Origin: a virus
UHGV virus genome: UHGV-0049167
Length of the DNA: 64,000 nt
Strand: one strand, 5' to 3'
The notes below the pieces were generated by a model. The model made no database searches. It had not been told where the DNA came from and saw only the letters and a list, made by a program, of their open reading frames with translations. The translations under genes were made by a program, and so were the position numbers. Shown here in pieces: positions 3,463 to 61,296 of this stretch. How positions within the stretch are numbered: the stretch's first letter is position 1; each line of letters starts with the position of its first letter.

Positions 3463-4024
3463 GCTGGACGTCACCACGCGGCAGGCATATGACCTGATTA
3501 CGGCGGCGTATTCAGCCGAAGTGGAGGCACGTAACGGAAAGTTCATCCTTGATGAGCATACAAAAACGCACGTGTGGTATGCGGCTAAGGCTCTGACCAC
3601 GACGGACAAGTTCGGCATAGCCTTCTGCGGCGAGGTGGGCAACGGCAAGACGACGCTAATGTCGGCAATATGCAACCTCACGTCATACCTCATGGGCAAT
3701 GAGGACAGACACTTCAGGAAAATCAAGGCGACAGATATTGCGACGGTTTATGCAAACCGCAGTGATTTCAAGATTCTGTGCAACGATGAGTTCCTTGCCA
3801 TTGATGACATCGGCTGCGAACCGGCGGAAGTTATGTCGTACGGAAACATACTCACACCAACGGTGGAATTGCTTATGGCACGCTACGACATGCAGCTGTA
3901 CACGATGTTCACCACCAACATCATGCCGAAGAAGATAAAGGACCGTTACGGAGAACGGATAGCGGACAGGCTGCGTGAGATGATGTATATTATACCGTTT
4001 ACAAATCAGACGTACCGCCTATGA
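3374..4024 (+). CDS. DnaC/IstB-like AAA+ ATPase (helicase loader)
   Basis: Walker A GEVGNGKTT, Walker B LAIDDIG; start uncertain (89-nt overlap with upstream ORF, internal ATGs at 3395/3416/3434). Confidence 0.6.
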   Translation: MQTIPKDMKIDVAAMKSRLLMRRTTAPRFKLDVTTRQAYDLITAAYSAEVEARNGKFILDEHTKTHVWYAAKALTTTDKFGIAFCGEVGNGKTTLMSAICNLTSYLMGNEDRHFRKIKATDIATVYANRSDFKILCNDEFLAIDDIGCEPAEVMSYGNILTPTVELLMARYDMQLYTMFTTNIMPKKIKDRYGERIADRLREMMYIIPFTNQTYRL

Positions 4025-4251
4025 AGGAAAGTGAAATACGGAAGCTCCGTTCTTTCATGACACATGCGGAGAGTGTCTTTTCCGCATTGTCGAAATACAA
4101 TACGTGTGACCTTGTCTCCATATTGGGACTACGTGCCTATAATGCATGGCGTATAGCACGCTACAAGGAACTGCCGCAAGTGCGCGGATATCTCAAAAAG
4201 AAACAAGAACATGAAAGTCTTAACACAAAACCTATTGAAGACGATGATTAA
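4021..4251 (+). CDS. hypothetical protein
   Basis: 76 aa, ATGA start/stop overlap with DnaC-like gene. Confidence 0.4.
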   Translation: MKESEIRKLRSFMTHAESVFSALSKYNTCDLVSILGLRAYNAWRIARYKELPQVRGYLKKKQEHESLNTKPIEDDD

Positions 4252-10065: not shown

Positions 10066-11022
10066 ATGACACAGACCGGCATAATCGTCCTTCCGCATCA
10101 AATCAAAATGAAAGCGTGTGAAATACAACTCGACTACGACACCGTAATGTCAAAGGTAAGCCGCCCGCTTGCAAGGAAGCTGGTACACTCCGTGGAGCTT
10201 TTGCGGAAGTCGGAGAAAATGGCGTTGCGCCTCGACCCCGAAAACGGCTTTTACCTTGCGTTCAGCGGCGGCAAGGACAGCCAATGCCTCTACCATGTCG
10301 CAAAGCTGGCCGGTGTCCGCTTCAAGGCTCACATGAACCTTACGAGCATAGACCCGCCCGAAGTCATCCGCTTCGTCAAGACGCAATACCCCGATGTGGA
10401 GCTAATCAAACCACGGATGAGCATTTACGAAATGGCTAAGAAAAAGCACATCTTGCCTACAAGGATTTTGCGCTGGTGTTGCGCCGAGTTCAAGGAAACG
10501 TCAGGCGTTGGCAAAATAACACTTGTCGGTGTGAGAAAAGAAGAAAGCGCACGGCGAGCCAAACGTGAGGAAATATCCACAGAGATAAAGGGCAAGCGCA
10601 CTGAGGAAACCTTTGACCAATGGAGCGAACATGAGGAGAGCATGGTTGCGTGTGTCGGCGGTAAGGACAAAATCCTTGTATCGCCCATAATCTATTGGAC
10701 GGAGCGCGACGTGTGGGAGTTCCTTAACGTGAACGGCATACCACACTGCGAACTCTACGACGAGGGTTATACACGCATTGGCTGCATCTGTTGCCCTATG
10801 TCGCAACCATGGCAAAAAGCCAAAGAGATTAAACGTTGGCCGCACGTCAAACGCAATTGGATAAAGACAATCCAATGGCTGATAGACAACGGATATATCG
10901 ACCACAATTTCAACGACGCTGAAACAGGCTTTAGGTGGTGGATAAGCGGCAAGGGCTACAAGCAGTTCTACGCCGACGAGTTCCTGCAACAGAAAATTGA
11001 ATTTAAAGACAAAGACCAATGA
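10066..11022 (+). CDS. PAPS reductase-like PP-loop ATP pyrophosphatase family protein
   Basis: 318 aa; PP-loop motif LAFSGGKDSQ near N-terminus; C-terminal Cys cluster GCICCP. Confidence 0.65.
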   Translation: MTQTGIIVLPHQIKMKACEIQLDYDTVMSKVSRPLARKLVHSVELLRKSEKMALRLDPENGFYLAFSGGKDSQCLYHVAKLAGVRFKAHMNLTSIDPPEVIRFVKTQYPDVELIKPRMSIYEMAKKKHILPTRILRWCCAEFKETSGVGKITLVGVRKEESARRAKREEISTEIKGKRTEETFDQWSEHEESMVACVGGKDKILVSPIIYWTERDVWEFLNVNGIPHCELYDEGYTRIGCICCPMSQPWQKAKEIKRWPHVKRNWIKTIQWLIDNGYIDHNFNDAETGFRWWISGKGYKQFYADEFLQQKIEFKDKDQ

Positions 11023-12708: not shown

Positions 12709-13764
12709 ATGAATTTTGCCAAATTTTACGATATAAGTGATTGGGTAGAAAAGCCCTACATCAACACAAAAGGTACCAGGAACAAATGTATTGTCATAGA
12801 CCCAGATAGTGGTATTGAATATTATTTCAAAACCTCTATCCACAAAGGTGCTATGGACTACAAGACTGAGTTCTGGTCAGAAATCATAGCTTCCAAAGTT
12901 GGGCAATATCTGAATTTCAATGTGCTGGATTATAACATAGCCAAACATAAGGATGAAGTCGGTTGCCTCTCTATGTCTATGATAAAAGACGGTGAATGCC
13001 TTACGGAGGGTATAAGTCTACTGACAGGATTCGACAATACTTATCGACCGTCAGACAAAGATTCATATTCACAATACACTTTCCATTTCATTGAAGAGGC
13101 CATAAGCAGTTTCGGATTGTCAAAGAACATTGACGATGTTATCAGGACCATTATCTTTGACTCTATAATAGGGAATAGTGACAGGCATCAAGAAAACTGG
13201 GGGTTCATCACGCCTTTTCAAGAAAAAACATTAACAAGGGAGGAGGCAAAAAGTTTTCTTGGAAGATTGAAAGAGCGCATCAAGAAGATACAGGATTCAT
13301 CGCGTGGCAACAACGGAAACGTTCCTTTAGACGTCCACGTCAAGATACGGATTTTGCAAATTGTCGGTAAATACGCTCCGATATATGACAGTGGATGCTG
13401 TCTCGCACGTGAAAAAAACGAAGGAGCCGTAAGGCAAATGCTTAATGACAAAATAATGTTCGACAGTTTTGTCAACCGTGGGCAGTCTGAAATACGTTGG
13501 GACGAAAGTGGGAGAAAGCTAAACCATTTCGAGTTGATAAAGCGCATAAAAGAAAAATATTACGAAGTCGTTACCGATACAATCAACCAAGTCATCGCCG
13601 TTTATGATGAAAATAAGATACATGACATTGTATTTAACATAGACAAGCGCCTTCCTGACGTACTGAAAGCTGACGAACGTTGGGCTTTGTCTGATGACAG
13701 GAAAGAATTGATATGTAGATTGATTGACGAACGTTTTAACAGACTAAAAAACATTATATTATGA
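12709..13764 (+). CDS. HipA-like Ser/Thr kinase family protein
   Basis: 351 aa; catalytic-loop-like IIGNSDRHQENWGF and downstream APIYDSGCCL fit the HipA C-terminal kinase signature; AT-rich gene. Confidence 0.55.
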   Translation: MNFAKFYDISDWVEKPYINTKGTRNKCIVIDPDSGIEYYFKTSIHKGAMDYKTEFWSEIIASKVGQYLNFNVLDYNIAKHKDEVGCLSMSMIKDGECLTEGISLLTGFDNTYRPSDKDSYSQYTFHFIEEAISSFGLSKNIDDVIRTIIFDSIIGNSDRHQENWGFITPFQEKTLTREEAKSFLGRLKERIKKIQDSSRGNNGNVPLDVHVKIRILQIVGKYAPIYDSGCCLAREKNEGAVRQMLNDKIMFDSFVNRGQSEIRWDESGRKLNHFELIKRIKEKYYEVVTDTINQVIAVYDENKIHDIVFNIDKRLPDVLKADERWALSDDRKELICRLIDERFNRLKNIIL

Positions 13765-14432
13765 AAAGATATATAAGACAAATCTACTTGGTATGGAGAC
13801 GAGGTAGAAACGAAAGAAGAATAAAGGTCGGAAGAATTCTCCGTAATAGTACGGAGGGGGTACGGTTCATGTACATGTCAGAAGGAGTCAAGGAAGCAGT
13901 GGAAAAAGGATTCAATATGTATCCTGATTTTCCAGACCCAGGAAAAGTGTACCATAACAACGTGCTTGAAATATTTTCACAGAGGTTGAACAACACCGAA
14001 CGTTCAGATATACAAAAGTATTATGACTATTGGGAAATAAGCCCTGAGATGAAAGATGACAAATATTATGTGCTTGCCCAAACGCAAGGACTTCTGCCGA
14101 CAGACACATTCGAGTTTCTTGCAGAATATTATCCGGTAAAGGATTTGCGTTTTACCAGCGAAATTTGTGGATTGACAAAAATGCAGCTTCCTAACGGAAC
14201 TTTGAAAGAAGGTGATATGCTAAAATGGAAATTGGAGCCAAGTAATCCTTACGATAAATATGCCGTAAAGTTATATAAGGAGAATAAGGAATTAGGATAT
14301 GTTAAATTAATACACAGTAAGGTTTTCCATGATTCAAAATACAAAAAATTCGCTGTAAAGGTAAAAAGCGTAGAACAGAATGGACATATAAACAGGGTTT
14401 TTGTTTCCGTATCCACTATTAATGTCAGGTAA
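13761..14432 (+). CDS. HIRAN-domain protein
   Basis: 223 aa, ATGA-coupled to the kinase gene; C-terminal LEPSNPYDKYAVKLYKENKELGYV matches the HIRAN core motif. Confidence 0.5.
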   Translation: MKRYIRQIYLVWRRGRNERRIKVGRILRNSTEGVRFMYMSEGVKEAVEKGFNMYPDFPDPGKVYHNNVLEIFSQRLNNTERSDIQKYYDYWEISPEMKDDKYYVLAQTQGLLPTDTFEFLAEYYPVKDLRFTSEICGLTKMQLPNGTLKEGDMLKWKLEPSNPYDKYAVKLYKENKELGYVKLIHSKVFHDSKYKKFAVKVKSVEQNGHINRVFVSVSTINVR

Positions 14433-14523: not shown

Positions 14524-15078
14524 ATGAACTTAAAGAAACTATCACAAAAAGCTTTTGAGACCGCAAAGGCGCACGGATGGCATGATGAAGAACTTCCTGA
14601 CGAAACTTATTTGATGCTTATCATAACGGAGATAGCCGAAGCTGTACAGGCAGATCGCAATAACAGGCACACGGATATAGACCTTTTCAAAGCATTACTT
14701 GAAACATACGCCAAAGATGATGCTGTATTTAAGTATGAATTTGAGACACATATCAAAAACAACGTCGAGGATGAGCTTAGCGACATAATCATACGCTGTC
14801 TTGACCTTGCCGCGCTACGTAATTGCGACCTTTCCCTTGCAAAGGCTGTGACAGACGACAATATTTTTACAGTGAATGACGAGCTGCCAAAATTCGCTTT
14901 CAGGATGTGCTGGATGCTTACGTATGAAGCTGACACCTTGTGCAGCCGACTGAATTGCTGTATTGCTGGCGTCATCGCATACTGCCATCAAAAAGACATC
15001 GACATCGACTTCTTCGTCGAGCAGAAGATGCGCTATAACAGACTCCGCCCATTTAAGCATGGGAATAAGAAATATTAA
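14524..15078 (+). CDS. MazG-like nucleotide pyrophosphohydrolase family protein
   Basis: 184 aa; AHGWHDEE...LMLIITEIAEAVQADR and EDELSDIIIRCLDLAA resemble the EExxE/ELxD helices of phage MazG-like proteins. Confidence 0.5.
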   Translation: MNLKKLSQKAFETAKAHGWHDEELPDETYLMLIITEIAEAVQADRNNRHTDIDLFKALLETYAKDDAVFKYEFETHIKNNVEDELSDIIIRCLDLAALRNCDLSLAKAVTDDNIFTVNDELPKFAFRMCWMLTYEADTLCSRLNCCIAGVIAYCHQKDIDIDFFVEQKMRYNRLRPFKHGNKKY

Positions 15079-15655: not shown

Positions 15656-16165
15656 CTACCACTGCCAAAGCCTATAATATACGGATATTCCTATGAAAGG
15701 TGTCGGTTTCATGTCTTTCCCTATACCGTAACCTGCGGCAATACCGACGCCAAGGAGCGGACTTTCCTTGTACCTTGTGACAGTTACAGTCTCGTGTCTC
15801 GGATATACAAATATACTGTCAAGATTCGCGCGGAATCCGCTCACGTATGCGGTATAGGTACTGTCCTTATAGACTTTGGAAGTTATAGGCAGTGTCACCT
15901 TGACGCTGTCGCCTGTATTCCCGCCCTTCTCTTCGTATATCGTGTCTTTGCGGCAAGTCACGGGCAACGTCTCCGTAACATACCGTATCACCGTACTGTC
16001 TTTGGGTACAGGATTCAAGAACGGAATGGTGTCTATATATGTAGTCCGTACTGTGTCCTGATTCGTTGTTTTCTTTCCGGCATTACTGCACTGGAGTATG
16101 TTGACGCATAATGATGCGGTCAACAACACCGATACTACCACAAGCAATCCTTTAAATCTTCCCAT
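15656..16165 (-). CDS. putative lipoprotein
   Basis: 169 aa; signal peptide with Cys at LTASLC; last gene of the minus-strand cassette. Confidence 0.45.
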   Translation of the reverse strand: MGRFKGLLVVVSVLLTASLCVNILQCSNAGKKTTNQDTVRTTYIDTIPFLNPVPKDSTVIRYVTETLPVTCRKDTIYEEKGGNTGDSVKVTLPITSKVYKDSTYTAYVSGFRANLDSIFVYPRHETVTVTRYKESPLLGVGIAAGYGIGKDMKPTPFIGISVYYRLWQW

Positions 16166-16184
16166 GTTCTTTCATTTTTTATTA

Positions 16185-16222
16185 AACAAAAAGCGGCAAC
16201 CCTTGATATGTGGGTCACCGCC
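16185..16222 (-). terminator. intrinsic terminator candidate downstream of the XRE/ImmA gene
   Basis: imperfect GC stem (GCGGCAACCC / GGGTCACCGC) followed on the minus strand by a T5 run. Confidence 0.35.
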
Positions 16223-16247
16223 TGTGTTGTATCAAAATAGATAATTG

Positions 16248-17303
16248 TTATATTAGTGGCTTTAATGATATTATCCTAGCAGATTTGCCGAATATCTTTA
16301 TCAAGACATCCTCGGGCAAGCCTGTGCTTTCCGAAATCATGCTGATTGAATACCCCAATGTGTCCGATACCAGCCTATATGCCTGCTCAAAGACGGTAGG
16401 GCTGTCAATAGGCACTTCGTAAGGTTCTTTCTTATTCCAATGACGTCTGCTGAACTCCATTCTCATAGACTTGTACTTCTCACTTGCAATGGCGTTTATG
16501 TTTTTTGCCTTTTCCAAAAGTGATGCCATGGAAACAAGCCAATACCGTTTCAGCTCAGGGAACTGTCCGAGTCTGACATTGTGCAAGGCGTTTCTGACAA
16601 CTTGGGAGGGGAGAAGGAACTCCGATGCAAAAGCGTTCGCCTCTTTCTCCTTGTCTCTAATGCTGAATACCGGGAAACTTGGGCACTCGTGCATCAGTAT
16701 GTGTCCCAGCTCATGTGCAAGCGTAAACCTTACCCTGTCGTTGCTTCTGTTCCTGTTCACGATGATAAGATGATTGCCTGCGTCAGTTATCAGGGAAACC
16801 CCGTCAAACTCGTCGTTAGGACTGTCCCACATGTAAATGAATACCCCGTTTCGCTCAAGGAATTTGCAAATATCGGATATAGGCGACATGCCGAGCCTGT
16901 ATTTGTTCCTTATGTGCCCGGCAAGTTCCTCCGGGCTTATGCCGTTGTCCATGTCGTAGTATCCAAATGAATAGTCAGGTATCTCGACAAATTCACTAAG
17001 CCAATCAAAACAATACGCAATCAGGGATATTGTCCTGTCTATCTCGTTGCGTGTCTTTACGGTTATGGTAGCCTTTTTCCTGTAATGCTTGCTGTCTACC
17101 TTGTTCACAATATTCATGTCAAGGAATTTCATCGGGAAATCAAGCGTGGACATAATCAAACCAAGCATGTTGTCAGACAGCCCGCCAAACCCCTTTTCGT
17201 ATTTTGACAGGTTGGATTGCGACAGCCCTTTGACTTTTGCCGCGAGTGCGGTTTGCGTGAATCCCCTGTATTCCCTTGCGAATGTAAGCTGCTCACATTT
17301 CAT
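16248..17303 (-). CDS. XRE-family HTH fused to ImmA/IrrE (M78) zinc metallopeptidase domain
   Basis: 351 aa; N-terminal HTH (LTFAREYRGFTQTALAAKVKGLSQSNLSKYEKG); HEXXH in FTLAHELGHILMHE. Confidence 0.7.
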   Translation of the reverse strand: MKCEQLTFAREYRGFTQTALAAKVKGLSQSNLSKYEKGFGGLSDNMLGLIMSTLDFPMKFLDMNIVNKVDSKHYRKKATITVKTRNEIDRTISLIAYCFDWLSEFVEIPDYSFGYYDMDNGISPEELAGHIRNKYRLGMSPISDICKFLERNGVFIYMWDSPNDEFDGVSLITDAGNHLIIVNRNRSNDRVRFTLAHELGHILMHECPSFPVFSIRDKEKEANAFASEFLLPSQVVRNALHNVRLGQFPELKRYWLVSMASLLEKAKNINAIASEKYKSMRMEFSRRHWNKKEPYEVPIDSPTVFEQAYRLVSDTLGYSISMISESTGLPEDVLIKIFGKSARIISLKPLI

Positions 17304-17352
17304 AAGACATTGCTTTTATAGTTCTTTTTTTAACAGACGGTGTGCCCTGCTG

Positions 17353-17946
17353 TTATTCTGCTTTCTTTTCTCCTGTCTCTTTCTTTTTCAGGCGGACAAC
17401 AATCTCCTGCGTGTCTGTATTGGCAACCGGTACATTCACACCGTCTTCCATATAGGAAGTCCATTGAACCCCATCGTCATACAAGACAATTCTCGGGTTT
17501 ACGAGCTGCCCGAAACCGTCCTTTGTATATCCGAAAATCAATATCGGCTCTTCCTTGCCTTCATCGCCTTGGAAAAGCGGTAATTGGTATTGGTTGACAA
17601 TCGAATCTGAAAGTATTGTCGGAATGTAAGACGGCTTGTCATTCTTGTTCAATTTCTTGATGAGCATGAGCACACCGTTCCATCTGAATATTATCCTTCC
17701 GTATTTGCCTTTGTTCCAGTTCTCGGGAAATGTGAGAATGAAACTCTCTGTTATTTTTGCGTTAAGCAAAGGACCTACAAGCCTTGTCCTTGCTTCAGGT
17801 ATGGTCATATTTACTTCTTCATTGTAATTTGCCAAACCTGCGTAATACGCCTTGAAGATGTCCTCATAACAATCTTTTAGCAGTTCCAACGCTTCTTTTT
17901 TCGTGATGCGTTTTCGTTTCTTAAAATTATTATTTATATTTGCCAT
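17353..17946 (-). CDS. hypothetical protein, upstream partner of the XRE/ImmA gene
   Basis: ORF table start 17970 is GTG; first ATG at 17946 (MANINNNFKK...); same strand, 46-nt gap to the ImmA gene. Confidence 0.45.
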   Translation of the reverse strand: MANINNNFKKRKRITKKEALELLKDCYEDIFKAYYAGLANYNEEVNMTIPEARTRLVGPLLNAKITESFILTFPENWNKGKYGRIIFRWNGVLMLIKKLNKNDKPSYIPTILSDSIVNQYQLPLFQGDEGKEEPILIFGYTKDGFGQLVNPRIVLYDDGVQWTSYMEDGVNVPVANTDTQEIVVRLKKKETGEKKAE

Positions 17947-18165
17947 ATAATTTAAATTTAAGACGGGCACACCGTCTGTAATTTCAGCCCTTATTGCCGT
18001 AAGGGCTTCTTATATGGTGCAAAGATATATAATTTCCCCAAATAATTGTATATAATTTTTCGAAAATATTGTATATTTAACGGCAACCCACAATGTCAAA
18101 GAACGCCTTTACGACGGTTGCAAATTCCGCAACCGTCGTCAGTTATTTCCATTTTGGAAACGAGC

Positions 18166-18759
18166 TCACACTTTCCCCAAGTACGCCATGATGCCTTCCA
18201 CGTGCAGCTCCACAATGGTTCGCTTGCCTTTCTCGCTCAGCAGATAGTCCACGTCCTCCCGGTTGTCCTGAAAAAGGTTTTCAGTCAGGACTGCGGGACA
18301 ATTTGTGTCACGGCATATTGCGAGATTCTGTGTCCAATATGGCTCATCCTGTGAGTATCTTCGGACTTTCAGTCCTTGTGTCTCTGCCGCGTCAATCAGA
18401 CGGCAGGCGAGCTCTTTGCTCTTCTTTGAAGCGTTGCGCGAGACATAAGCCGACCATCCTCTGGCGTCATGCCATTTGCCGTCGGCACCAGCCGCGTTAC
18501 AGTGTATTGAGACAAGTATCGCTTTCTTTCCTGTCGCGGCATAAATCCTGTTTGCCCTTTCGCACCGCTCTTTCAGGCTGATGTCGTTTTCCTCGGGCAC
18601 AATGCGCTGCGCGTCATATCCACGTGCCTTGAGTTCCCTTTCAAGACGCACTGCAATCTCACGGGCGTATGCGTATTCGAGCAGGCGTCCGTCAGGCGAC
18701 CGTTTCCCTGCGGTGTCCTTTCCGTGTCCCGCATCAAGTATAACTTTAAAATTTTCCAT
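18166..18759 (-). CDS. N-acetylmuramoyl-L-alanine amidase (Amidase_3 family) endolysin
   Basis: 197 aa; VILDAGHGKDTAGKRSPDG and SIHCNA motifs typical of Amidase_3; adjacent to holin-like genes. Confidence 0.8.
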   Translation of the reverse strand: MENFKVILDAGHGKDTAGKRSPDGRLLEYAYAREIAVRLERELKARGYDAQRIVPEENDISLKERCERANRIYAATGKKAILVSIHCNAAGADGKWHDARGWSAYVSRNASKKSKELACRLIDAAETQGLKVRRYSQDEPYWTQNLAICRDTNCPAVLTENLFQDNREDVDYLLSEKGKRTIVELHVEGIMAYLGKV

Positions 18760-23430: not shown

Positions 23431-24823
23431 CGTAGCCGTTTATATCTGTGTCTGCCTCTATATATGCTCTGAAACCGTTCGCTTCCTGCGGTTCCTGAAG
23501 ATGATACACAAGACCTCCTGTTCCAAGCGTGTATGCTCCGGCAGGCACTGTTGTTTTGCAGTAGAATCCCTTCATTGTGACCCCATTATATGTCACCGGC
23601 AGCGGTTCCGTCTCCCATTGTGAGACATTGGCTATGATATACTCGGAAGCGGGACTGTCACCGCCCGGTTTAAAAAGATACGGCTTGCCAGCCTCAATTG
23701 ATGTGACTTTGGTAAAGTGCAAGGTTTTCCCTTCTATTGAAGTATATTCCGAAACCTCCGTCCCTTCACCGAATACGCCCGCTATGTCCGTCACGTTGAA
23801 CGGCAGGCACAAAGAGTGCCAGACACCCGCACCGAACGTCCTTTTAAGCGTAACGGACACTGTCAGCCCGAGCTTTGCGCAGCTCTCTATCACGGTCTGA
23901 TTATAATGTCCGTCAGACGACTGGTCAAGAGTGACGGCAGAGAGTGGGGTGGAGGAGGCTGTCAGTCCGGCAATGTTCTCCGGAGGATATGTGAAATACC
24001 ATCGGAAACCTTTCATCGTGTTCACGCTCACGTTTGAATGGTACAGCTGTCCCGAGCTGAACAGATAGCATCCCTCGGGCAGAGCGTATATCTTGCCGTA
24101 TGAAGGATGGAACTTAAGTGAGCCGTAAGCAGGCTCAGGCGCGGCAGACACGACAGAGTCTATGTCCTCGAACACATACACACTGTCTGATGGCGGGTCA
24201 GCTGTCGGGACGACGACATAGCATTGTCCGGCATCCATGCCGTCCGTCACTTCGGTAAGCCGCAGGTTCGGGTCGTCTGTCAGACCTCCGTATGCGTAAA
24301 CTTTTGTCCCCTCACCGAACGCAGCCGCAATCTGTGCGGTGCTTAAAGAGAACGGCAGTACGAACGTGTTGTAGATGTCCTTCTTGACACCGCTTCGTTT
24401 TACCTTTACCGTCAGTCCGGTGCCTTCCACCGCGTTTACGGGTGTCTCGGACTCCTCGTCAAGAATCAGCTCGGATGTGCTGTCACGCACGCACGCCTTA
24501 TCCGGCAGGCTCTCGCATTCAAGGCGCATCCGCAGCCCTTTGTCAATTTCCAGCATATGGAGCATGACGCTTCCTTCGCGCCTCTCGTATCTCGACCAAG
24601 TATGCGTCACGGTCATTCCCATGCCCGGCAGTCCCGCATACAGTGTGATACCGCTTTCCGGCTCACCGTCTATCTGTAATATTCCCTCACCGCCATGTGT
24701 CCATTCCGCATGCCACATTCCTCCGGTTTTGGAAAAGTTCAATGTTGTCAATGTCATATACTGTCCTCCTGTTTTTTTATCATAAATATATGTTTCCGTT
24801 CGTGTCCGTGTCATCATCGTCAA
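23414..24823 (-). CDS. putative tail protein
   Basis: 469 aa, immediately downstream of the giant fibre gene. Confidence 0.4.
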   Translation of the reverse strand: MTMMTRTRTETYIYDKKTGGQYMTLTTLNFSKTGGMWHAEWTHGGEGILQIDGEPESGITLYAGLPGMGMTVTHTWSRYERREGSVMLHMLEIDKGLRMRLECESLPDKACVRDSTSELILDEESETPVNAVEGTGLTVKVKRSGVKKDIYNTFVLPFSLSTAQIAAAFGEGTKVYAYGGLTDDPNLRLTEVTDGMDAGQCYVVVPTADPPSDSVYVFEDIDSVVSAAPEPAYGSLKFHPSYGKIYALPEGCYLFSSGQLYHSNVSVNTMKGFRWYFTYPPENIAGLTASSTPLSAVTLDQSSDGHYNQTVIESCAKLGLTVSVTLKRTFGAGVWHSLCLPFNVTDIAGVFGEGTEVSEYTSIEGKTLHFTKVTSIEAGKPYLFKPGGDSPASEYIIANVSQWETEPLPVTYNGVTMKGFYCKTTVPAGAYTLGTGGLVYHLQEPQEANGFRAYIEADTDINGYGEPEQ

Positions 24824-27800
24824 TGCGATTAATCTGTATCATCTGCACCCTGTCATAATTCATGTATACGGCTGTTGTCGTTATCATGCTGCCGTAGTAT
24901 ACGGTGCCGCTTCCCGGTTGTACGATTCCGATGTTCGAGAATCTGTATACATTGCGCGAGCACCATTGTCTGGAGAAATCCACCTTTTCCGCATAGTCAT
25001 CCTCATATCGCGTATAGTCCATTGGCGGTGTGTCCATAGGCGAGCCTATCATGAACGATTCCGGATTGTCCTGCGCCCACATTCCTGTGACAGCCTGTGC
25101 CGTGGTCACATTACCCTGCTCCATGAACCATCTGCCGTTCGCGGCTCTTGCAATCTCCGGAGTGGAGGCGTAGTCACCGCTGAGATATGTGTCGTTTACG
25201 CGCCCTGCAAGATACATGTACAAAGGTGTTTTCGTGTACACATGACCATATTGGAATATGGTGTTCATTATCTGTTTGTTGCCAACGATGTCGCCTACGG
25301 TGGAGAATGTGGCCCCTGTCAGCTGCAGGCGTCCGTATTTGCTGCTGGTCTCCCACCGTTCTTCCGAGACATCCTTGCCGGACAGTCCCCACGGTCCGAG
25401 GTCATAAAGGAACGTACCGTCATTGTCATAATAGGACAGTACCATGTATGAGCCGTTATATCCCATTTTGATGTTGGTCACACCGTTAGGGTTCTTTACC
25501 TCAATCAGTCCTCCCTTTATCTCCACATGCCCCTGTCCTTCGTCCATCGTGCGGAGCATCACACCTGTAAGGGTGCCCGCCTCGTCGATTGTGGTGACTG
25601 TCTCGCCGGAGTTGTTCTGTATCTCGAAGTTGTCGGCAGTGACCTTTATGCGCTTGTGTTCAATGTCTATCCCTGTCGCCTGCAGCTCGTCGCGCGTGAT
25701 TGTCTCCGAACGCCAGTCGGTCGCCTCGCTGCCTTTCTCCAGCTTCACTCCGCATATCCAGACCTCTCCCTGTGCAGAACTGTCCGGCATGAGCCGTGCC
25801 GCTATCAGGCTCTTCCCTCCGCTTACGTCATTGCGAGTGCTCCATGTCACCTGATAACGGTTCCATCCGCTTTCAAGCGTGAACTGCACGAATCCGTCTG
25901 TCACACCTGTCTGGTTCTTCGTCCCCGGACTTGTGACCCAGTCGGTGCAGTTCGGATAGAAGTACGAGCCGATGCTGCCTGTGCCGCGCGCCCAGAATGA
26001 GAGCGTATACTGTACGCCCGGCTCGGGCACCACGTTGCGCCATGTGATGACGTCCTTGTATGATGTCCCGGCTTCGTTCACACCGTGTGCCACGCTTATT
26101 TTTTCTCCGTAAGGTGTCGTGTATGCTCCTGCCTCTACGGTATCCTGTACGGTGCATTGGCTGAAGTCCGATGTTCCTGGAAGAAGATTCGGTCTTTTAA
26201 GCCTGTCCTCCGCGCTGAGTCCCCAGTCTGTCGCGTCCGCACCTGTCTCTATCTTGGGACGCGACACGGACGAGTATCCTGATGATATGCCCTGTATATA
26301 CAGGTTACACTGCTCTACCGACGCCACAGCCTTGTCCTGTATCCTGTGTGTGGAGCTTATGCGTCCCTCGAACGTGTCCGTGGATGTTATCTGCCTCCAT
26401 GTCCCGAGATACTGCGTACTGCCGTCGGCATACCGTATCATGGGCTCCATGCCGATACGTCTGTTGCCTGATGCTGCCGGAACCGCAGATACGGTCTTGA
26501 CAAGACATGATACGGTTATTGTCTTTCCGCGCAGGCTTGACACATCCCCGATTGTGTAGACCTTGTTCCCGTTCCCTGTCAGGAATATGTCAGGAGTGGT
26601 CACCATGTTTCCGTCCTTTGCCCCAAGATAGCCGACTTTAAGGCTTATGCTGTCCGTCTCAGCCTTAATCTGCGATGAGAGTGCCATGGACGATACAGTG
26701 AAGGACAGGCGGCAGCTCACACTGCGGGTCTCCCCGCCCAGCGTTGCCTGTGCCGTAATCTGTACCCATCCCGCTCCGTATGGCACCGAACCTCCCCAGT
26801 CTGCCGTATATGTCCCTATTGCGGTTATTGTAACCTGTGCCCCGTTGCGTGACGCAAGACAGTGCATAGGCTCTATGGCGGTAATTGTGACAGTCATCTC
26901 GCGCGTGCCGAGCCATGCGCGCAGACGTGATGTCGCATCCTGCATGCTCACCACACCGTCACTGTCAGCCTCCAATGTTATGGCGGCAGGGTCAAGTGCC
27001 CATGAGAAGCCGTCCTGCCCGTCCGTGCCGGGTTCACCGTCACTTCCGTCCGCTCCGTCCTCACCGCGTATCCGTGTCCACTTATATGAGGTAACGCTTG
27101 TCGGGTCATATGAGTTGAAGTCTACGCATTGCCCGAGCCACGCGCCCGGTGTCTCACCGTTGTTTGCTGTGAACGTCTTTCCCCCGTCGTCGGAATATTT
27201 GATGTGAAGGTAGCTTGTCTTTCCGTCCGTACCGTTGGTTCCCGGTATTCCCTGCTCCCCATCATACCCTTGGAAGCGTGACCACGTGTAGTCCGAAGGG
27301 TCGTCGCTGTCTGCCTCCGTGAAGTCAACGTATGTGCCGATGTAGAGGTTGGGAACTTCTGACATTGGAGTCCCGTTGGAGTTTGCCGAGTATTTAACAT
27401 GGAAATATGTCGTACGACCGTCCTCTCCTGCGGGTCCCGGAACGCCCTGCTCCCCCTTGTCTCCTTTTTCTCCGGTATCACCCTTTATCTTTGACCATTT
27501 ATAATCGGACGGTGTTCCGCTGTCTGTAGGATTCGTGTCTGTAAGGACTCCAATCCAGTCACCGCTGTCCTCTCCGTTGTTTCCGGTAAAGGTGACGCCT
27601 CCGTCGTTAGAGTATTTGATATGGAGATAATATGTCGTGCCGTCAGTCCCATTCACGCCCGGCAAGCCCTGTTCTCCCTGTATGCCTTCAAATCTTGACC
27701 AAGTGTAGTCAGATGCATCAGTACTGTCTGTTTCTGTAAAATCGACGTAAGTACCTATGTATTTGTCAGGCGTCTCGGTCATGGGCGTACCGCTCGCGTT

Positions 27801-30800
27801 CGCAGAATACTTTATGTGGAAGTAGCTTGTACGTCCGTCCGCACCGGGTGTTCCGGGTATGCCTTGCTCGCCTTGCGGTCCTTGTAATCCTTGAAGCCCC
27901 TGCTCGCCTCTATCACCTTTGTCTCCTTTGTCGCCCTTTATCTTCAACCAAGTGTATTCTGACGAGTCTGTGCTGTCGTCAGCGTTGGTGTCTGTCATGA
28001 CGCCAATCCACGCGCCCGGTGTCTCACCGTTGTTTGCTGTGAACGTCTTTCCCCCATCATCGGAGTATTTGATGTGAAGATAATATGTAAGCCCGTCCAC
28101 ACCGTTGGTTCCCGGTATTCCCTGCTCCCCATCATACCCTTGGAAGCGTGACCACGTGTAGTCCGAAGGGTCGTCGCTGTCTGCCTCCGTGAAGTCAACG
28201 TATGTGCCGATGTAGAGGTTGGGTGTCTCGGTCATGGGATTTCCGTTCTCGTTTGAAGAATATTTCACATGGAAGTATGTGGTCTTTCCGTCATGACCGG
28301 GTGCCCCGTCTTTACCGGCTACACCGGGAATACCCTGCTCTCCTTGCGGACCCTGCGGTCCCTGTATGTTTCCGGCATTCACCCACTTGTCACCGTCCCA
28401 CACCCATAAGTCTCCGTCTATGAGCCATGCGTCACCGACCGCGTTGCCGTCCTGCGGGAGTTCGGAAGAGTCATTCTTCGAACCTTTCAGATTGAATGAA
28501 GTCCCGTCCTCTCCACGGAATTTGCTCCATGTATAGTCGGAAGGATTGTCGCTTTCCTGTGCGCTCTCTTTGTTTACGGCTATGCCTATATATTTTGTCG
28601 TGTCTGAAGGGGTCTGATACATAGGCTCACCGTCCGGACTGTCAGAGTAGGCAATCCATGTATAGAGAGTCTCACCGTCCTCGCCCTTTGCTCCCGGCAC
28701 TCCGTCCTCGCCTTTTATCTCTGACCAGGTATAGTCCGATGGATTGTCGCTTTCCTGTGCGGTATTCTTGTTATATGCGAATCCAATGTATTTCTTTCCG
28801 GAAGGGTCGTTGGATATGCCTCCTCCTTCAGCGGTGTCGGAATATCTTATCCATGTGTAAAGTGTCTTCCCGTCCTCACCGGACGGTCCTGGTACACCCT
28901 GTGGTCCCATGTCACCTTTCTCACCCTGCTGTCCGTCCATACCTCTGAAACGTGCCCATGTATAATCAGAGGGGACATCGCTCGCTGTAGGGTTAAAATC
29001 CACGCGTGTACCGATAAATACATCCGGAGTCTCACTCATGGGCACACCGTCAGGATTCGGTGAATATCTTATGTGAAAATATGTGGTTTTCCCGTCTGCT
29101 CCGTCTTCTCCAGCCGGACCCTGTATTTTTCCTGCGTTTGCCCATGCGCTGCCGTCCCATACCCACAGATAGCCGTTCACGAGATACGCGTCTCCTGTGC
29201 TGTTCCCTGTTGGCGGCAGCATGCTCTCGTCATCAACGCTTCCCTTCACAGTGAATGACGTGCCGTCCTTTCCGTCAGTACCTTTAATCCTTGACCATGC
29301 ATAGTCGCTGTAGACGAGAGCCACGTCGCTCTCCGTGCGGTCTGTGCATATGCCGAGCATGAGCCAGTCTTTTGCCGTGCTCTGGGATTTGTCCTTTGTC
29401 CAGTCGTCCGGACCGTTTCCCCATGCAAGGTGCGTGTAGCTGACAAGACCGGAAGTGTCCACATCCAGCTCGCCTCTTATCTTATTGCCGTTAGCCGCGA
29501 ACCATGTCGTGCGGTACTGGCTTAGAGAAAAACTTGTGATTCCGTTGTATTGCGCGAATGACGGACTCTCCAGCTCGGTATCCGGAGTGGAGTGGGCGGC
29601 TATTATTATCGCATGGCTGCGCGCTGTGTCGTCACCACGGTGTCCGCACAGACAAACGCTGTCACCCTCTGCAGGCTCAAGGCTGTCAGCCGCGCACGTG
29701 GCTTCAGACACTTCAATCCAATGGCACTTTCTGTCCTCACCGTCAATGTTCCGTGTTCCGCTCCCTGTTGCCGTGACAAGTCTCCACCATAGTCTGTTTC
29801 CTGCATCATATGATGTCCCCTCGGCAAGATTGGATGTCATTGCCAGAGCCTGGTCTCCGACCTTCCACATGTTCTGCACGGCTCTGCCGTCGCTGTCCTC
29901 CGCCAGCCACCACAGACGCCATGCTCCGCTTATTCTTTCGACAGAGCGTACCGTGCAGTTAGCAGCGGACAGTATCAGTTGACCTCCGACGCTGTTCAGC
30001 TCATCTATGACAAGCTCGAAGAAATGTGCCCTTCCTGTCACGGTCAGCGTTTTCATTGTGGCTTCGTCGGCAAGAAGTTTCTTCAGCCGTGCGGTACCGT
30101 CCGCATCTATGCCGTAGTCTCCGTCTCCCACAAGCAGCCCTTTGAGGAATGTTATAATATCCAAGGCTGTGTCCGGACTGTCTTTCCGCAGAAAATACTT
30201 CGCGCATTGTGCTAAAATGTCACCACGCATGCCATAAGTCAGGGATGTAAGTATCTCTGTTTTTATGGAATCGAGCTGTGCTCTGAATGAGGATTGAGAC
30301 ACGGTCAGGGTGTCTGTTAAATCCACACTTATTTCATAAAGTATGCTATCATCGGCTTTACAAGTATAGTTGCTGACATACAGAAGATGCTCTTCTTGAT
30401 TATATCTTACTGTCAGACGTGTATTTTCATTCAGCAATGAGGTGAAGTCCTCATTTAATGCCAGATATACACGGGAAAATTTTATTGAATATGTGAATTT
30501 CTCATCATTATTCCCTTTCATGTAAGCAATAAGAGCCGCATCCAGTCTTTTTTCCGCTTCCCGTATGTAGGATTCAGGAAGAGAAATGCCAGTTATGACA
30601 AATGTATCGCCTATTGACGGACGATATCCTTGTGCCGCGTTCGGCATAATGACACCAAAGGTATCTGTTTCTTTTTTTACGGCTATCCATACTTCATATT
30701 CGCTGGTGTCCTGCTGGCGTGAAACGTAACTGTTTGTATCACGTGAAGGCAGGATATAGTCTCCTTCATATTTGTCCGCATTAGAACTGTTGACCTTGCG

Positions 30801-32942
30801 AAGATTGCCTTGTGCGTCTGTCATGACAGGGTTATAGAATTTGTATCTGTCACCATCGGCATACTTGTCCACCCCGATAACGAAACGGCATGCGGCGCAG
30901 TTGCCGCTTGTCATCTCTATTGCAGCCTCTTCGCTTTCTAATGCATGCTCAAAAATATTGAAGCCTCCACTTCCGTTATATACATGTAGTTTTATATAGA
31001 AATATGAATGAAGGTATTCGTCACTATTGTCTTTAAGGACATCGCTATCATCCGTATCAAACCGTATGTCAGCTATTTCACCTATCAACTGACCTTGAAT
31101 GTTTTTTATCCCTTTTATTGTCGGGACTATATCTTCAAATGAAGTCGTCCCTTCGTGAGGGTTCAATTCATTGTATACATTATTAAATATATATTTATTT
31201 CCTGATTCATCTTCATCTTCATATGTATTATTGACTGCATTATAGTAGCGTTCCGCTCCTCCACTTTCTCTGTATATAGAGGGCATCAGGCTCTGAGAGG
31301 GAGTTATCCACTCTCTTCCTGTAATATTAATTATGGCTGGTGTGTGGTCACCGCTGTCCTCCACAACATTCCATTCACCGCCTGAGAAATCCAAATGCGA
31401 AGGCGCATACGGAACATTGTTTACATCAGACAGCGTTATTCCGCTTTTACTGTATGCGATGTTATTCCCATCTCCATATGAGAAATAATACAGTTCTCCG
31501 CCACTTTTCTGATATGTTATGGATGATTTTGCATTTAACGTCATTCCTATAGTCGCCTGGCTGTTGGTCGCTCCGCTTCCTGAGAAAATGGCGTAAGCAG
31601 TCCCTTTAATCACAACTTGAAACCATCCGCTGGCATGGAAGGTATATTCATAGTCCTTCCAACCTGACAATATTTCTATTTTATCACTTATAGAATCATC
31701 CTCATTCGGATTATAGTCGTCTCTCCATATTCCAATACTTATTGTATTTTTAAGGTTTCTGTCCCCTCCGTAGCTATTTGACGATACTTTCTGCCATGAA
31801 AGTGATAAATCTGCGTCACCGCTGATTTTTCTGAAAGTCAAAAAGGATTCATTGAAAACAAACCGAAGTTTGTCTCCCTCTTGTGCATTTATTTTCAGTC
31901 TGAAAGATATCGTGATATAGGTGTTGCCTATACCTGTTCCAAAATAGAATATGTCTGTAGCCTCCCTGTTGCTTATTACTGTGGGGCTATATGCATTATA
32001 AAAAGGAGCAGTCTGTCCGATGTCTGCGCTGGCATCCGTGTTTGACACCTTTTTAAGTCTATATGCGGTATATGGGGAACTGTTGTATTTTAGTATCTCA
32101 TTTAAGGAGATATCTGCTACTTCAGATTTGTCAATGTTCTCTGTGTCGAAACTCGCGTTGCCCTCCGCACTCATGTTTGGATAGTACCATGGCAAATTTT
32201 TTGTGCCTCCAGTACCGGTTATCCTCGTGATAATCCTGTAATTGGCATTTGTTTTCTGAATAGACAACAGAGCATTGTCATTACCATATTCTATCGGAGT
32301 TGTTATTACATTCTCTGTATATCCTACGTGGCAGGTCTTCCCTGTCCAATAATAGGCGAGTCCATATACATTATATATATCCTGTAGAGCCTCTGCAATG
32401 AACTTGTCTTCTATACTGACATCTTTGCCCTCAGAAGTTATGCCTTCGTCAATGACAATATGGAAACCTTCTTGTTTGTCTTTATTATATAGACCGCTGT
32501 AAATCAATGAATCGTTGAGCCGGGCAACAAACTCGTGTACATCACCGAAGAAATGTACTTTAGATGTGTTGCTTCTGTATCGGTCTTTATATTGGGCTTC
32601 AGTATCTTCTGTTACCACATCAAGGAAATACACGTTTTCAAGTATCTCCCTTTCACTTACAAATGTGACCTCATGTTTGTATGTTATCTCAGAATTGTCT
32701 TTGGATGATGACGGCTTTTGCCTTATATAATACTTCTCTCCGCCAAATTCTATATACTCGTTTAATGTCCATTCATTGTCAAGACATCTTGGGAATTTCA
32801 ATGTAGCCGTGAAGGTCGGTGCGCCGCCCATGCGTTGTGCGTCATAGGTGTATGTACCTATGACCGCTTTTTCTGTAGACGAAGGAAAATATTCTTTCAC
32901 TCCGTTTGTGTCACGCATTATGTATAAGCTCTTCTTCTCCAT
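24780..32942 (-). CDS. giant tail-fibre-like protein with collagen-like Gly-X-Y tracts and tandem repeated modules
   Basis: single 2720-aa ORF; repeated modules of the form GKTTYFH(I/V)KYS...DPSDYTWSRF...G-X-Y triplets...TYYLHIKYSDDGGKTFTANNGETPGAW; DNA-level direct repeat about 870 bp apart. Confidence 0.7.
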   Translation of the reverse strand: MEKKSLYIMRDTNGVKEYFPSSTEKAVIGTYTYDAQRMGGAPTFTATLKFPRCLDNEWTLNEYIEFGGEKYYIRQKPSSSKDNSEITYKHEVTFVSEREILENVYFLDVVTEDTEAQYKDRYRSNTSKVHFFGDVHEFVARLNDSLIYSGLYNKDKQEGFHIVIDEGITSEGKDVSIEDKFIAEALQDIYNVYGLAYYWTGKTCHVGYTENVITTPIEYGNDNALLSIQKTNANYRIITRITGTGGTKNLPWYYPNMSAEGNASFDTENIDKSEVADISLNEILKYNSSPYTAYRLKKVSNTDASADIGQTAPFYNAYSPTVISNREATDIFYFGTGIGNTYITISFRLKINAQEGDKLRFVFNESFLTFRKISGDADLSLSWQKVSSNSYGGDRNLKNTISIGIWRDDYNPNEDDSISDKIEILSGWKDYEYTFHASGWFQVVIKGTAYAIFSGSGATNSQATIGMTLNAKSSITYQKSGGELYYFSYGDGNNIAYSKSGITLSDVNNVPYAPSHLDFSGGEWNVVEDSGDHTPAIINITGREWITPSQSLMPSIYRESGGAERYYNAVNNTYEDEDESGNKYIFNNVYNELNPHEGTTSFEDIVPTIKGIKNIQGQLIGEIADIRFDTDDSDVLKDNSDEYLHSYFYIKLHVYNGSGGFNIFEHALESEEAAIEMTSGNCAACRFVIGVDKYADGDRYKFYNPVMTDAQGNLRKVNSSNADKYEGDYILPSRDTNSYVSRQQDTSEYEVWIAVKKETDTFGVIMPNAAQGYRPSIGDTFVITGISLPESYIREAEKRLDAALIAYMKGNNDEKFTYSIKFSRVYLALNEDFTSLLNENTRLTVRYNQEEHLLYVSNYTCKADDSILYEISVDLTDTLTVSQSSFRAQLDSIKTEILTSLTYGMRGDILAQCAKYFLRKDSPDTALDIITFLKGLLVGDGDYGIDADGTARLKKLLADEATMKTLTVTGRAHFFELVIDELNSVGGQLILSAANCTVRSVERISGAWRLWWLAEDSDGRAVQNMWKVGDQALAMTSNLAEGTSYDAGNRLWWRLVTATGSGTRNIDGEDRKCHWIEVSEATCAADSLEPAEGDSVCLCGHRGDDTARSHAIIIAAHSTPDTELESPSFAQYNGITSFSLSQYRTTWFAANGNKIRGELDVDTSGLVSYTHLAWGNGPDDWTKDKSQSTAKDWLMLGICTDRTESDVALVYSDYAWSRIKGTDGKDGTSFTVKGSVDDESMLPPTGNSTGDAYLVNGYLWVWDGSAWANAGKIQGPAGEDGADGKTTYFHIRYSPNPDGVPMSETPDVFIGTRVDFNPTASDVPSDYTWARFRGMDGQQGEKGDMGPQGVPGPSGEDGKTLYTWIRYSDTAEGGGISNDPSGKKYIGFAYNKNTAQESDNPSDYTWSEIKGEDGVPGAKGEDGETLYTWIAYSDSPDGEPMYQTPSDTTKYIGIAVNKESAQESDNPSDYTWSKFRGEDGTSFNLKGSKNDSSELPQDGNAVGDAWLIDGDLWVWDGDKWVNAGNIQGPQGPQGEQGIPGVAGKDGAPGHDGKTTYFHVKYSSNENGNPMTETPNLYIGTYVDFTEADSDDPSDYTWSRFQGYDGEQGIPGTNGVDGLTYYLHIKYSDDGGKTFTANNGETPGAWIGVMTDTNADDSTDSSEYTWLKIKGDKGDKGDRGEQGLQGLQGPQGEQGIPGTPGADGRTSYFHIKYSANASGTPMTETPDKYIGTYVDFTETDSTDASDYTWSRFEGIQGEQGLPGVNGTDGTTYYLHIKYSNDGGVTFTGNNGEDSGDWIGVLTDTNPTDSGTPSDYKWSKIKGDTGEKGDKGEQGVPGPAGEDGRTTYFHVKYSANSNGTPMSEVPNLYIGTYVDFTEADSDDPSDYTWSRFQGYDGEQGIPGTNGTDGKTSYLHIKYSDDGGKTFTANNGETPGAWLGQCVDFNSYDPTSVTSYKWTRIRGEDGADGSDGEPGTDGQDGFSWALDPAAITLEADSDGVVSMQDATSRLRAWLGTREMTVTITAIEPMHCLASRNGAQVTITAIGTYTADWGGSVPYGAGWVQITAQATLGGETRSVSCRLSFTVSSMALSSQIKAETDSISLKVGYLGAKDGNMVTTPDIFLTGNGNKVYTIGDVSSLRGKTITVSCLVKTVSAVPAASGNRRIGMEPMIRYADGSTQYLGTWRQITSTDTFEGRISSTHRIQDKAVASVEQCNLYIQGISSGYSSVSRPKIETGADATDWGLSAEDRLKRPNLLPGTSDFSQCTVQDTVEAGAYTTPYGEKISVAHGVNEAGTSYKDVITWRNVVPEPGVQYTLSFWARGTGSIGSYFYPNCTDWVTSPGTKNQTGVTDGFVQFTLESGWNRYQVTWSTRNDVSGGKSLIAARLMPDSSAQGEVWICGVKLEKGSEATDWRSETITRDELQATGIDIEHKRIKVTADNFEIQNNSGETVTTIDEAGTLTGVMLRTMDEGQGHVEIKGGLIEVKNPNGVTNIKMGYNGSYMVLSYYDNDGTFLYDLGPWGLSGKDVSEERWETSSKYGRLQLTGATFSTVGDIVGNKQIMNTIFQYGHVYTKTPLYMYLAGRVNDTYLSGDYASTPEIARAANGRWFMEQGNVTTAQAVTGMWAQDNPESFMIGSPMDTPPMDYTRYEDDYAEKVDFSRQWCSRNVYRFSNIGIVQPGSGTVYYGSMITTTAVYMNYDRVQMIQINRIDDDDTDTNGNIYL
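27138..28230 (-). repeat. two direct-repeat copies (about 220 bp each, about 870 bp apart) inside the giant gene; coordinates approximate
   Basis: near-identical DNA starting CCACGCGCCCGGTGTCTCACCGTTGTTTGCTGTGAACGTCTTTCCCCC at about 27138 and 28008, and again ACCGTTGGTTCCCGGTATTCCCTGCTCCCCATCATACCC... in both copies. Confidence 0.6.
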
Positions 32943-60970: not shown

Positions 60971-61288
60971 ATGCTAATCGAATTTTACAAAGACTACCTG
61001 CGCGAACTATTTGTGCAAGGTCGGACGAACGACAAGAAACACCGCTATCAACCCGAAATAATAAAAGGTTACAAAAAGTGCGTGATGTTCTTAAAACGAG
61101 CAAACAACGTGGAGCAACTTTACCCTATCCACTCCTTGAACTGCGAAGTTTTACAGGGCGACAAAAAGGGTGTTTCATCCGTGCGAATAAACAGGCAATA
61201 CCGACTTGAATTTACAGTAAGGGATATTTTAGGCGAGCAAATTGTCACAGTGTGCCGTCTATTGGAAATAAGCAACCACTACAAATAA
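60971..61288 (+). CDS. higB: HigB-like toxin (RelE/ParE superfamily)
   Basis: 105 aa; LQGDKKGVSSVRINRQYRLEFTV...VTVCRLLEISNHYK matches the HigB pattern; immediately upstream of a HigA-like HTH gene. Confidence 0.7.
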   Translation: MLIEFYKDYLRELFVQGRTNDKKHRYQPEIIKGYKKCVMFLKRANNVEQLYPIHSLNCEVLQGDKKGVSSVRINRQYRLEFTVRDILGEQIVTVCRLLEISNHYK

Positions 61289-61296
61289 ATACAAAT

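Follow-up and report, generated by a model that had tools for sequence, protein, structure and literature searches.

A probable Rosmer-type toxin-antitoxin cassette with a covarying long-range RNA helix in the lysis region of a Prevotella/Segatella prophage

The viral genome UHGV-0049167, analysed here as one stretch of 64,000 nucleotides (the window), is a Prevotella/Segatella prophage in which two minus-strand genes stand side by side in the lysis region, one (17353-17946) encoding a 197-residue protein and the other (16248-17303) a protein that joins an XRE-type helix-turn-helix (HTH) domain to a zinc peptidase of the M78 (ImmA/IrrE/CapP) type. We conclude that these two genes probably form an autonomous toxin-antitoxin cassette of the Rosmer type, accessory to the prophage and equipped with a layer of RNA control. 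Rosmer systems are a known kind, in which diverse toxins are paired with an HTH/ImmA-protease antitoxin, often in toxin-first order, and which are also encoded by phages (PMC10440598; bioRxiv 10.1101/2022.05.11.491447; PMC12795458). The toxin family of the present pair is unclassified, and its mRNA carries a long-range clamp, formed between segments on either side of the toxin gene that we call box5 and box3, which is supported by covariation.

Two linked genes and their products

The two genes occur together in every locus examined. A search with the putative toxin across genomes, metagenomes and IMG/VR contigs yielded 77 related loci, with toxin identities of 40-99%, to which the window was added to give 78. 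In 78/78 of these loci a gene for an HTH-M78 protein of ~350 residues lies directly downstream of the toxin gene on the same strand, across an intergenic gap of 38-70 nt (49 nt in the window), and the identity of the partner (44-99%) rises and falls with that of the toxin. Four further, divergent HTH-M78 genes (45-47% identity) also have a toxin of the same family upstream and in the same orientation. The family is mainly one of Bacteroidota (Bacteroidales and Flavobacteriia), with related loci in Flavobacteriia such as Rasiella and Maribacter. The flanking genes differ wholly from one context to another: on the Segatella copri chromosome the pair lies among capsule and glycosyltransferase loci, in other phages it is found just 3' of a GH108 endolysin or of lysis genes, and elsewhere it stands beside Qat-like genes, PIN toxins, HEPN, HsdR, Mrr and DUF4365 genes and an integrase. 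Near-identical copies are present in contigs of 121-276 kb and in IMG/VR contigs of 35-62 kb; a megablast search of the 8-kb region against the INPHARED phages gave no match.

The boundaries of the cassette can be read from a sister phage (L080; IMGVR_UViG_3300045988_126137, 3700-4050), in which the pair is missing and the endolysin is followed directly by the DUF6808 gene. Its neighbouring lysis-region proteins are 97-98% identical to those of the window, the endolysin 93% and the DUF6808 protein 76%. L080 keeps the promoter repeats on one side and, on the other, the terminator together with ~13 nt from the 3' end of the antitoxin gene, the missing span running from the -7 box through the antitoxin stop codon. 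L080 is thus a precise natural deletion, which, together with the pair's own promoter repeats and its own terminator, identifies the pair as an autonomous, dispensable insertion in the lysis cassette. It also provides a natural knockout that would be useful for experiments.

An earlier, sequence-only reading of the window had grouped three minus-strand open reading frames (ORFs; 15656..16165, 16248..17303 and 17353..17946) into one cassette. The three ORFs lie where it placed them, as do the endolysin immediately upstream of the pair (Amidase_3 in Pfam and PHROGs; 18166..18759) and the plus-strand genes, which converge on the cassette at ~15653. The terminator-like hairpin that it had noticed downstream of the fusion gene was also recovered, as a strong hairpin followed by a U-run (16187..16222, minus strand; dG -22.5 kcal/mol, z -4.6) that closes the operon and is kept in L080. 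For the upstream ORF, the family alignment and homologs favour the ATG at 17946 as start over a GTG at 17970, which had set the end coordinate of that reading. Its grouping was too wide: the ORF at 15656..16165 does not travel with the other two, and these two alone make up the functional unit.

The fusion that had been proposed for 16248..17303 was borne out, with HTH_3 at residues 10-58, Peptidase_M78 at residues 169-265 and an HELGH motif. The 351-residue protein matches 14 PADLOC RmrA models over its full length (best 1e-58, residues 3-343), with scores comparable to those of RmrA-like proteins of Acinetobacter and Gordonia phages, and it matches PHROG 2439, again full-length. Among 35 unique homologs the motif HE[LMT]GH is invariant and the HTH recognition stretch GLSQSNLSK almost invariant. 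The AlphaFold2 model (pLDDT 88) consists of an XRE HTH, a disordered linker, a metallopeptidase core and a C-terminal helical bundle; structural matches were to the peptidase cores of CapP and IrrE and to the HTH domains of ImmR, DdrO and CapH, and there is weak similarity to PDB entry 9vzy, a 393-residue HTH protein for which we traced no paper. Judged by these matches the downstream protein would be an antitoxin of the RmrA type, and we infer that it neutralises the product of the gene upstream.

The 197-residue protein belongs to a small family. Its 115 close homologs, all of ~195-200 residues and unannotated, come from Segatella copri, Bacteroides and related gut taxa, and a profile search of 1.84 billion representatives returned 107 clusters only, all of standalone proteins of ~200 residues. 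The sequence-only reading had described it as an unannotatable protein of 198 residues; the length is 197 plus the stop codon, and the description otherwise held, there being no match in Pfam, PHROGs or NCBIfam and one in PADLOC at chance level only. Profile and structure comparison, to which that reading had looked for the nature of this protein and of a supposed lipoprotein, named the latter (a DUF6808 protein, discussed below) and left the former unannotated, with a fold that weakly resembles restriction endonucleases. Literature searches found no description of the family. Across 50 diverse members, initiator methionine aside, the only invariant residues are K97 and P105, while R84, K98, L99, T110, Q119, G139 and Y140 are conserved in at least 90%. 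No acidic residue is conserved among them, which excludes a canonical, metal-dependent PD-(D/E)xK active site; for the restriction-endonuclease-like fold itself the comparison gave weak scores. Nothing significant came from a BFVD fold search with the protein, and a sequence search of PDB with the toxin profile returned nothing. It is basic (pI 8.75) and has no transmembrane segment.

We also note that the last ~25 residues of the putative toxin (window ~17353-17430, minus strand) are predicted to be disordered (pLDDT <50), yet end in a conserved V.LK...KKAE motif, which could serve as a docking or cleavage motif for the partner peptidase. By its position and size the protein looks RmrT-like, and by its sequence it appears to form a new family; a nucleic-acid target would be a guess.

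Leader and long-range RNA helix

The sequence upstream of the toxin gene is constant in the family, 41 unique promoter segments sharing the consensus AAAATACAAAAnTTTnnnnAAATTATATACAATATTTnnnnnAAATTATATATCTTTGC. It contains three ATACAA/TATATC units ~23 nt apart (18019..18079, minus strand), the last of which holds a Bacteroidetes-type -7 box (TAnnTTTG; in the window TAtcTTTG, 18027..18020). The sequence-only reading had anticipated an operator-like inverted repeat in this region; what we found instead were these conserved direct repeats, together with a long-range RNA helix that it had not foreseen. Because promoter sequence and HTH are both constant, the ATACAA repeats are the likely candidate for the operator of the HTH. 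Near its 5' end, with a start predicted at ~18010-18015, the transcript would form a stem-loop, HP1 (AGCCCUUA-loop-UAAGGGCU; 17986..18007, minus strand), indicated by folding and by covariation of its arms between subfamilies, with double changes at 4/8 pairs. A search of Rfam 15 with the leader and intergenic RNA gave only a sub-threshold, spurious snoRNA match (E 0.26).

Downstream of HP1 lies box5 (ACAGACGGUGUGCCC; 17965..17979, minus strand), the 5' strand of the long-range helix, whose 3' strand, box3 (GGGCACACCGUCUGU; 17333..17347, minus strand), lies in the gap between the two genes. In the window box5 (ACAGACGGTGTGCCC, 17965-17979) is exactly complementary to box3 over 15 nt, where 0.03 matches of this kind are expected by chance in the whole window. 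Box5 ends 18 nt 5' of the toxin AUG, and box3 starts 5 nt past the toxin stop codon and ends 29 nt before the antitoxin AUG, such that their pairing closes the toxin ORF in a loop of ~620 nt.

Pairs of this kind are found in every subfamily, with sequences that differ between them: there are 29 distinct box5:box3 helices of 11-23 nt, and the occurrence of at least 12 unrelated helix sequences at the same position makes chance implausible. The distance from the end of box5 to the toxin ATG is typically 15-30 nt, with 18-20 nt the commonest, and box3 typically starts 4-11 nt past the toxin stop; that the helix keeps a fixed spacing to the toxin start (~18 nt) and stop (~5 nt) suggests some interplay with ribosomes at initiation and termination. 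When the structure was tested on an alignment of 13 sequences, 88.7% of helix cells were paired, compared with 27-43% in slid controls. Compensatory double changes occur in 8/15 helix pairs of this alignment and 0/500 shuffles reached the observed covariation score, statistics that are not fully corrected for shared ancestry. Intermediates are also visible, one pair being U-A in L001, U·G in L002 and C-G in L036. At non-Watson-Crick positions, scored neutrally on the sense strand, G·U outnumber A·C by 17 to 1 (binomial p ~7e-5, uncorrected for kinship), an excess that favours a sense-strand RNA duplex over a repeat acting at the DNA level.

Folding calculations agree with the alignment. Duplex energies between leader and gap average -30.6 kcal/mol for cognate and -17.1 for non-cognate combinations, and the box5:box3 helix is present in the minimum free energy fold of 20/20 full-length representative transcripts (~700-770 nt), with mean pair probabilities of 0.58-1.00. 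When the leader is folded alone, box5 instead forms a local hairpin, HP2 (17961-17977, minus strand), which points to two mutually exclusive RNA states, HP2 in the nascent transcript and the clamp once box3 has been made. In 11/29 helices (e.g. L014, L064, L067, L071 and L024) five or more T are found in the 8 nt after box3 (mean 3.8, 2.6 expected), so that the long-range helix resembles a split intrinsic terminator. We set this idea aside as a minor sub-hypothesis, since the enrichment is modest and the window copy has an A-run and no T-run after box3.

Literature searches turned up no long-range helix in type II or Rosmer (protein-antitoxin) operons, and the clamp is apparently an undescribed RNA feature. 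Long-range pairing that flanks a toxin ORF or an excised RNA is otherwise known from the hok mRNA fold-back (fbi-tac), dinQ, timPR, the icaR 5'-3' untranslated regions and the 16S rRNA RNase III stem, and the hok-type switches share with the present one a mutually exclusive local structure in the 5' leader, suggestive of a co-transcriptional switch. However, hok, dinQ and timPR combine RNA antitoxins with small peptide toxins, whereas here the antitoxin is a protein specified by a downstream cistron of the toxin mRNA, and the clamp has its 3' strand in the intercistronic gap rather than at the 3' end of the mRNA.

Relation to Rosmer systems and rival explanations

With RosmerTA (RmrT/RmrA; Gordonia phage Kita RmrTA and S. 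pneumoniae RipAB, spr1630/spr1629) the pair has in common a two-gene, toxin-first operon, an N-terminal XRE HTH and an ImmA-type Zn-metallopeptidase with intact HEXXH in a full-length RmrA match, a toxin of ~200 residues without known domain, and an occurrence in phages and defence islands. It differs in that its toxin matches no RmrT model and in being known from sequence alone.

Several results weigh against the assignment or against the generality of the RNA feature. The RmrT models of PADLOC are unmatched by the 197-residue protein of the window and by all 37 aligned sequences, an hhalign comparison of the toxin family with the recognised RmrT alignment was not significant (probability 2.2%, E 0.021), and rules of the PADLOC/DefenseFinder style need both components, so that the pair would not be called as Rosmer. 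Against NCBIfam NF052239, the equivalog model of the spr1629-family repressor/antitoxin, the fusion protein scores 108.6 bits (E 3.6e-31) where the cutoff is 335, which makes it related but no equivalog. For the helix, manual grouping of an earlier tally leaves ~10 independent G·U events, and one divergent locus, L088 (GCA_031553885.1, 2211-3001), has HP1 and a box5-like hairpin (CTTGG-caacaa-CCAAG) and no recognisable complementary box3 in its gap. In the Rosmer operons of four other phages the genes overlap or abut, leaving no gap for box3, whereas the pair described here has a gap of 38-70 nt that carries it. The genes upstream of the RmrA-like gene in these phages encode 218 residues in Lacticaseibacillus R24.2 and 204 in Escherichia Tritos (both overlapping, both RmrT in PADLOC), and 209 in Acinetobacter ABMM1 (overlapping) and 206 in Gordonia Howe (abutting), both without a PADLOC hit; our toxin-family profile matches the ABMM1 protein weakly, at 19 bits. 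Because Rosmer toxins are diverse and often mutually unrelated (PMC10440598; bioRxiv 10.1101/2022.05.11.491447; PMC12795458), the RmrT mismatch lowers the case for a known RmrT and not that for a Rosmer-type system, and the exception of L088 together with the gapless operons elsewhere marks the RNA feature as specific to the family of the 197-residue toxin.

The sequence-only reading had offered two functions for its cassette, a phage lysogeny switch or a regulator-plus-effector exclusion module. The second is now favoured for the 197-residue protein, given its linkage in every locus examined and its RmrA-like partner, with the supposed lipoprotein excluded. In a lysogeny or induction switch the HTH-M78 fusion would be the master repressor, cleaving itself in ImmA-like fashion on damage, and the 197-residue protein an accessory regulator. 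The M78 peptidases ImmA, IrrE and CapP do cleave XRE repressors upon damage signals, the fusion protein has its structural matches among just such repressors and peptidases, and some phage records annotate proteins of the fusion type as 'cI-like repressor'. We nevertheless consider this role highly improbable: the same pair recurs in defence islands and at many chromosomal locations outside phages, a precise deletion has removed it from a sister phage whose lysis proteins are 93-98% identical, and its site in the window is the lysis region, where it ends in a terminator of its own. The HTH-M78 gene is, moreover, invariably coupled to the gene for the toxin-like 197-residue protein. Among 20 other window ORFs scanned, we found neither an integrase nor a CI-like repressor. 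In ImmR/ImmA (ICEBs1), DdrO/IrrE (Deinococcus) and CapH/CapP (CBASS) repressor and protease are separate proteins that control transcription of the element or regulon, whereas here a single polypeptide contains both HTH and protease and is paired with a toxin-like protein. The roles within a toxin-antitoxin pair might also be reversed, the Zn-peptidase fusion being the toxic component and the 197-residue protein its inhibitor, substrate or sensor. Earlier comparative genomics, along with some other studies, treats the metalloprotease as the toxin ('COG2856 toxin / Xre antitoxin'; PMC2701414, PMC10538038), the 197-residue family lacks recognisable catalytic residues, and the conserved disordered tail of its members (V.LK...KKAE) could be a protease substrate or pseudo-substrate. 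Such a reversal is unlikely, as the HTH-peptidase protein is the antitoxin in the Rosmer systems that have been tested, where an rmrA deletion was unobtainable and where phage Kita RmrA and RipB antagonise their upstream toxins. Least credible is a three-gene module with the DUF6808 membrane protein as second effector. Only 82 nt separate that gene from the fusion gene upstream, and the two share a strand, but a terminator lies between them, the pair has a different downstream neighbour in other contexts, and in seven phage contigs (L080-L086) DUF6808 stands beside endolysins with no pair in the stretch examined. We rejected DUF6808 as a module effector on the terminator, the L080 deletion and this endolysin linkage.

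A different kind of alternative accepts the pair and has box5 and box3 act as DNA, either as paired HTH operators brought together by DNA looping or as inverted repeats at which site-specific events would invert or exchange the toxin gene. Invertible segments are common in the DNA of Bacteroidales, and the two boxes, inverted with respect to each other, enclose exactly one gene. Swapping of toxins between Rosmer systems is known (PMC10440598). This reading is nonetheless distinctly unlikely. The HTH recognition region is nearly invariant and the boxes are wholly different between subfamilies, the imbalance of 17 G·U to 1 A·C mismatches is not expected from DNA recognition, and the two strands stay complementary although helices range from 11 to 23 nt. 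Both specific forms of the idea failed: a tblastn check found a flipped toxin in 0/78 loci, the 4 added loci are likewise co-oriented and the mismatch pattern points to RNA, which speaks against an inverton, and an invariant recognition helix is at odds with hypervariable boxes as HTH operators.

Proposed mechanism, neighbouring genes and significance

For the Rosmer-type cassette, then, we propose the following. The pair would be a 'moron' of the prophage, inserted where the endolysin gene and the DUF6808 lysis gene would otherwise adjoin. The XRE HTH of the antitoxin probably autorepresses the operon at the ATACAA repeats overlapping the -7 box, and the M78 Zn-peptidase or the C-terminal domain is probably the signal-responsive part, by analogy with ImmA, IrrE and CapP. 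The 197-residue protein would be the effector, a soluble, basic alpha/beta protein that arrests growth, possibly aimed at nucleic acids, and that is held in check by the RmrA-like protein. On infection by another phage, a phage-derived or stress signal would free the toxin, the superinfection would be aborted and the lysogen would benefit; an anti-phage role of the cassette is probable.

In the transcript, HP1 would form and box5 would then fold locally as HP2 until, with the toxin cistron fully transcribed, it could pair with box3. Such a switch may set the output of toxin relative to antitoxin in a toxin-first operon. Its consequence might be cleavage of the stem by an RNase III-type enzyme that excises the toxin cistron, as with the stem flanking 16S rRNA, a fold-back control of toxin translation initiation, whose region would be sequestered or released as HP2 is replaced, or a control of termination. 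A bolder version, which we put forward tentatively and think doubtful as a whole, is that box5:box3 and HP2 make up a cis-acting RNA switch of a new class, one that would serve protein-antitoxin operons by keeping the toxin cistron inert or marked for excision until the transcript is complete, much as fold-back inhibition does for hok, and that the toxin is a new fold family without a canonical nuclease site. Since the clamp would rely on RNA folding, RNase III and translation in the host, it might then even be the trigger by which this defence senses infection.

The genes around the pair complete the description of the locus. The ORF at 15656..16165 (minus strand, 169 residues), which lies outside the cassette, encodes a DUF6808 membrane protein (Pfam 1e-25; phrog_26448). 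It adjoins an Amidase_3 endolysin, on either side, in L080 and in six more distant phage contigs (L081-L086), and in most other contexts the pair does not have it as a neighbour; since it travels with endolysins, it belongs to the lysis cassette. The label of lipoprotein given to it in the sequence-only reading has been dropped in favour of DUF6808 with a hydrophobic N-terminal anchor: neither Cys20 nor Cys26 stands in a canonical lipobox and the cysteine is missing in two of the 5 homologs examined (L086 and L027), so lipoprotein status is doubtful on sequence grounds. Conserved features are the N-terminal anchor and a Gly-rich C-terminus (GIGxxYxIxSW) with a final aromatic residue like that of an outer-membrane beta-signal, and the protein could be a spanin-like lysis component of Bacteroidales phages. 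Just past the endolysin stop codon there is a perfect 11-bp inverted repeat (ACGACGGTTGC/GCAACCGTCGT; window 18111-18139) with a T-run on the opposite strand, probably the terminator of the lysis operon.

On the plus strand, a HipA_C-like kinase (351 residues) and a HIRAN-domain protein (223 residues) at 12709-14432 match the candidate defence system PDC-M03A/B of PADLOC (8e-60 and 1.5e-30) and would give this accessory region another putative defence pair. In a related phage (L079/L021) no HipA or HIRAN match was found within the stretch examined, so the region probably varies. Among the plus-strand genes that converge on the cassette are those for a MazG-like pyrophosphatase (14524-15078; phrog_9236, 1e-49) and a PAPS-reductase-like protein (10066-11022; phrog_424, 2e-38), which may have nucleotide-pool or DNA-modification functions. 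Farther away, a HigB-like toxin of the RelE family (105 residues, PF05015) overlaps an HTH_3 protein (126 residues) at 60971-61632 (plus strand), a probable HigBA-type toxin-antitoxin pair. The window also has two giant ORFs, of 2720 residues at 24780-32942 (minus strand) and of 1915 residues at 42474-48221 (plus strand); within the former the GC content falls sharply, from ~0.55 to ~0.40, near 30000.

Rosmer-type systems are widespread, and the cassette family provides a clean, compact example of them in Bacteroidales that are abundant in the human gut (Segatella copri, Prevotella and Bacteroides) and their prophages, with a new toxin family that is not called by current defence-finder tools. 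The deletion in L080 and the position of the pair in the lysis cassette document a hotspot for accessory ('moron') and defence genes in Prevotella phages. If the clamp is functional, it extends to protein-antitoxin operons an RNA-level safety mechanism so far described for type I toxins, and it would help to explain how toxin-first operons avoid producing toxin without antitoxin.

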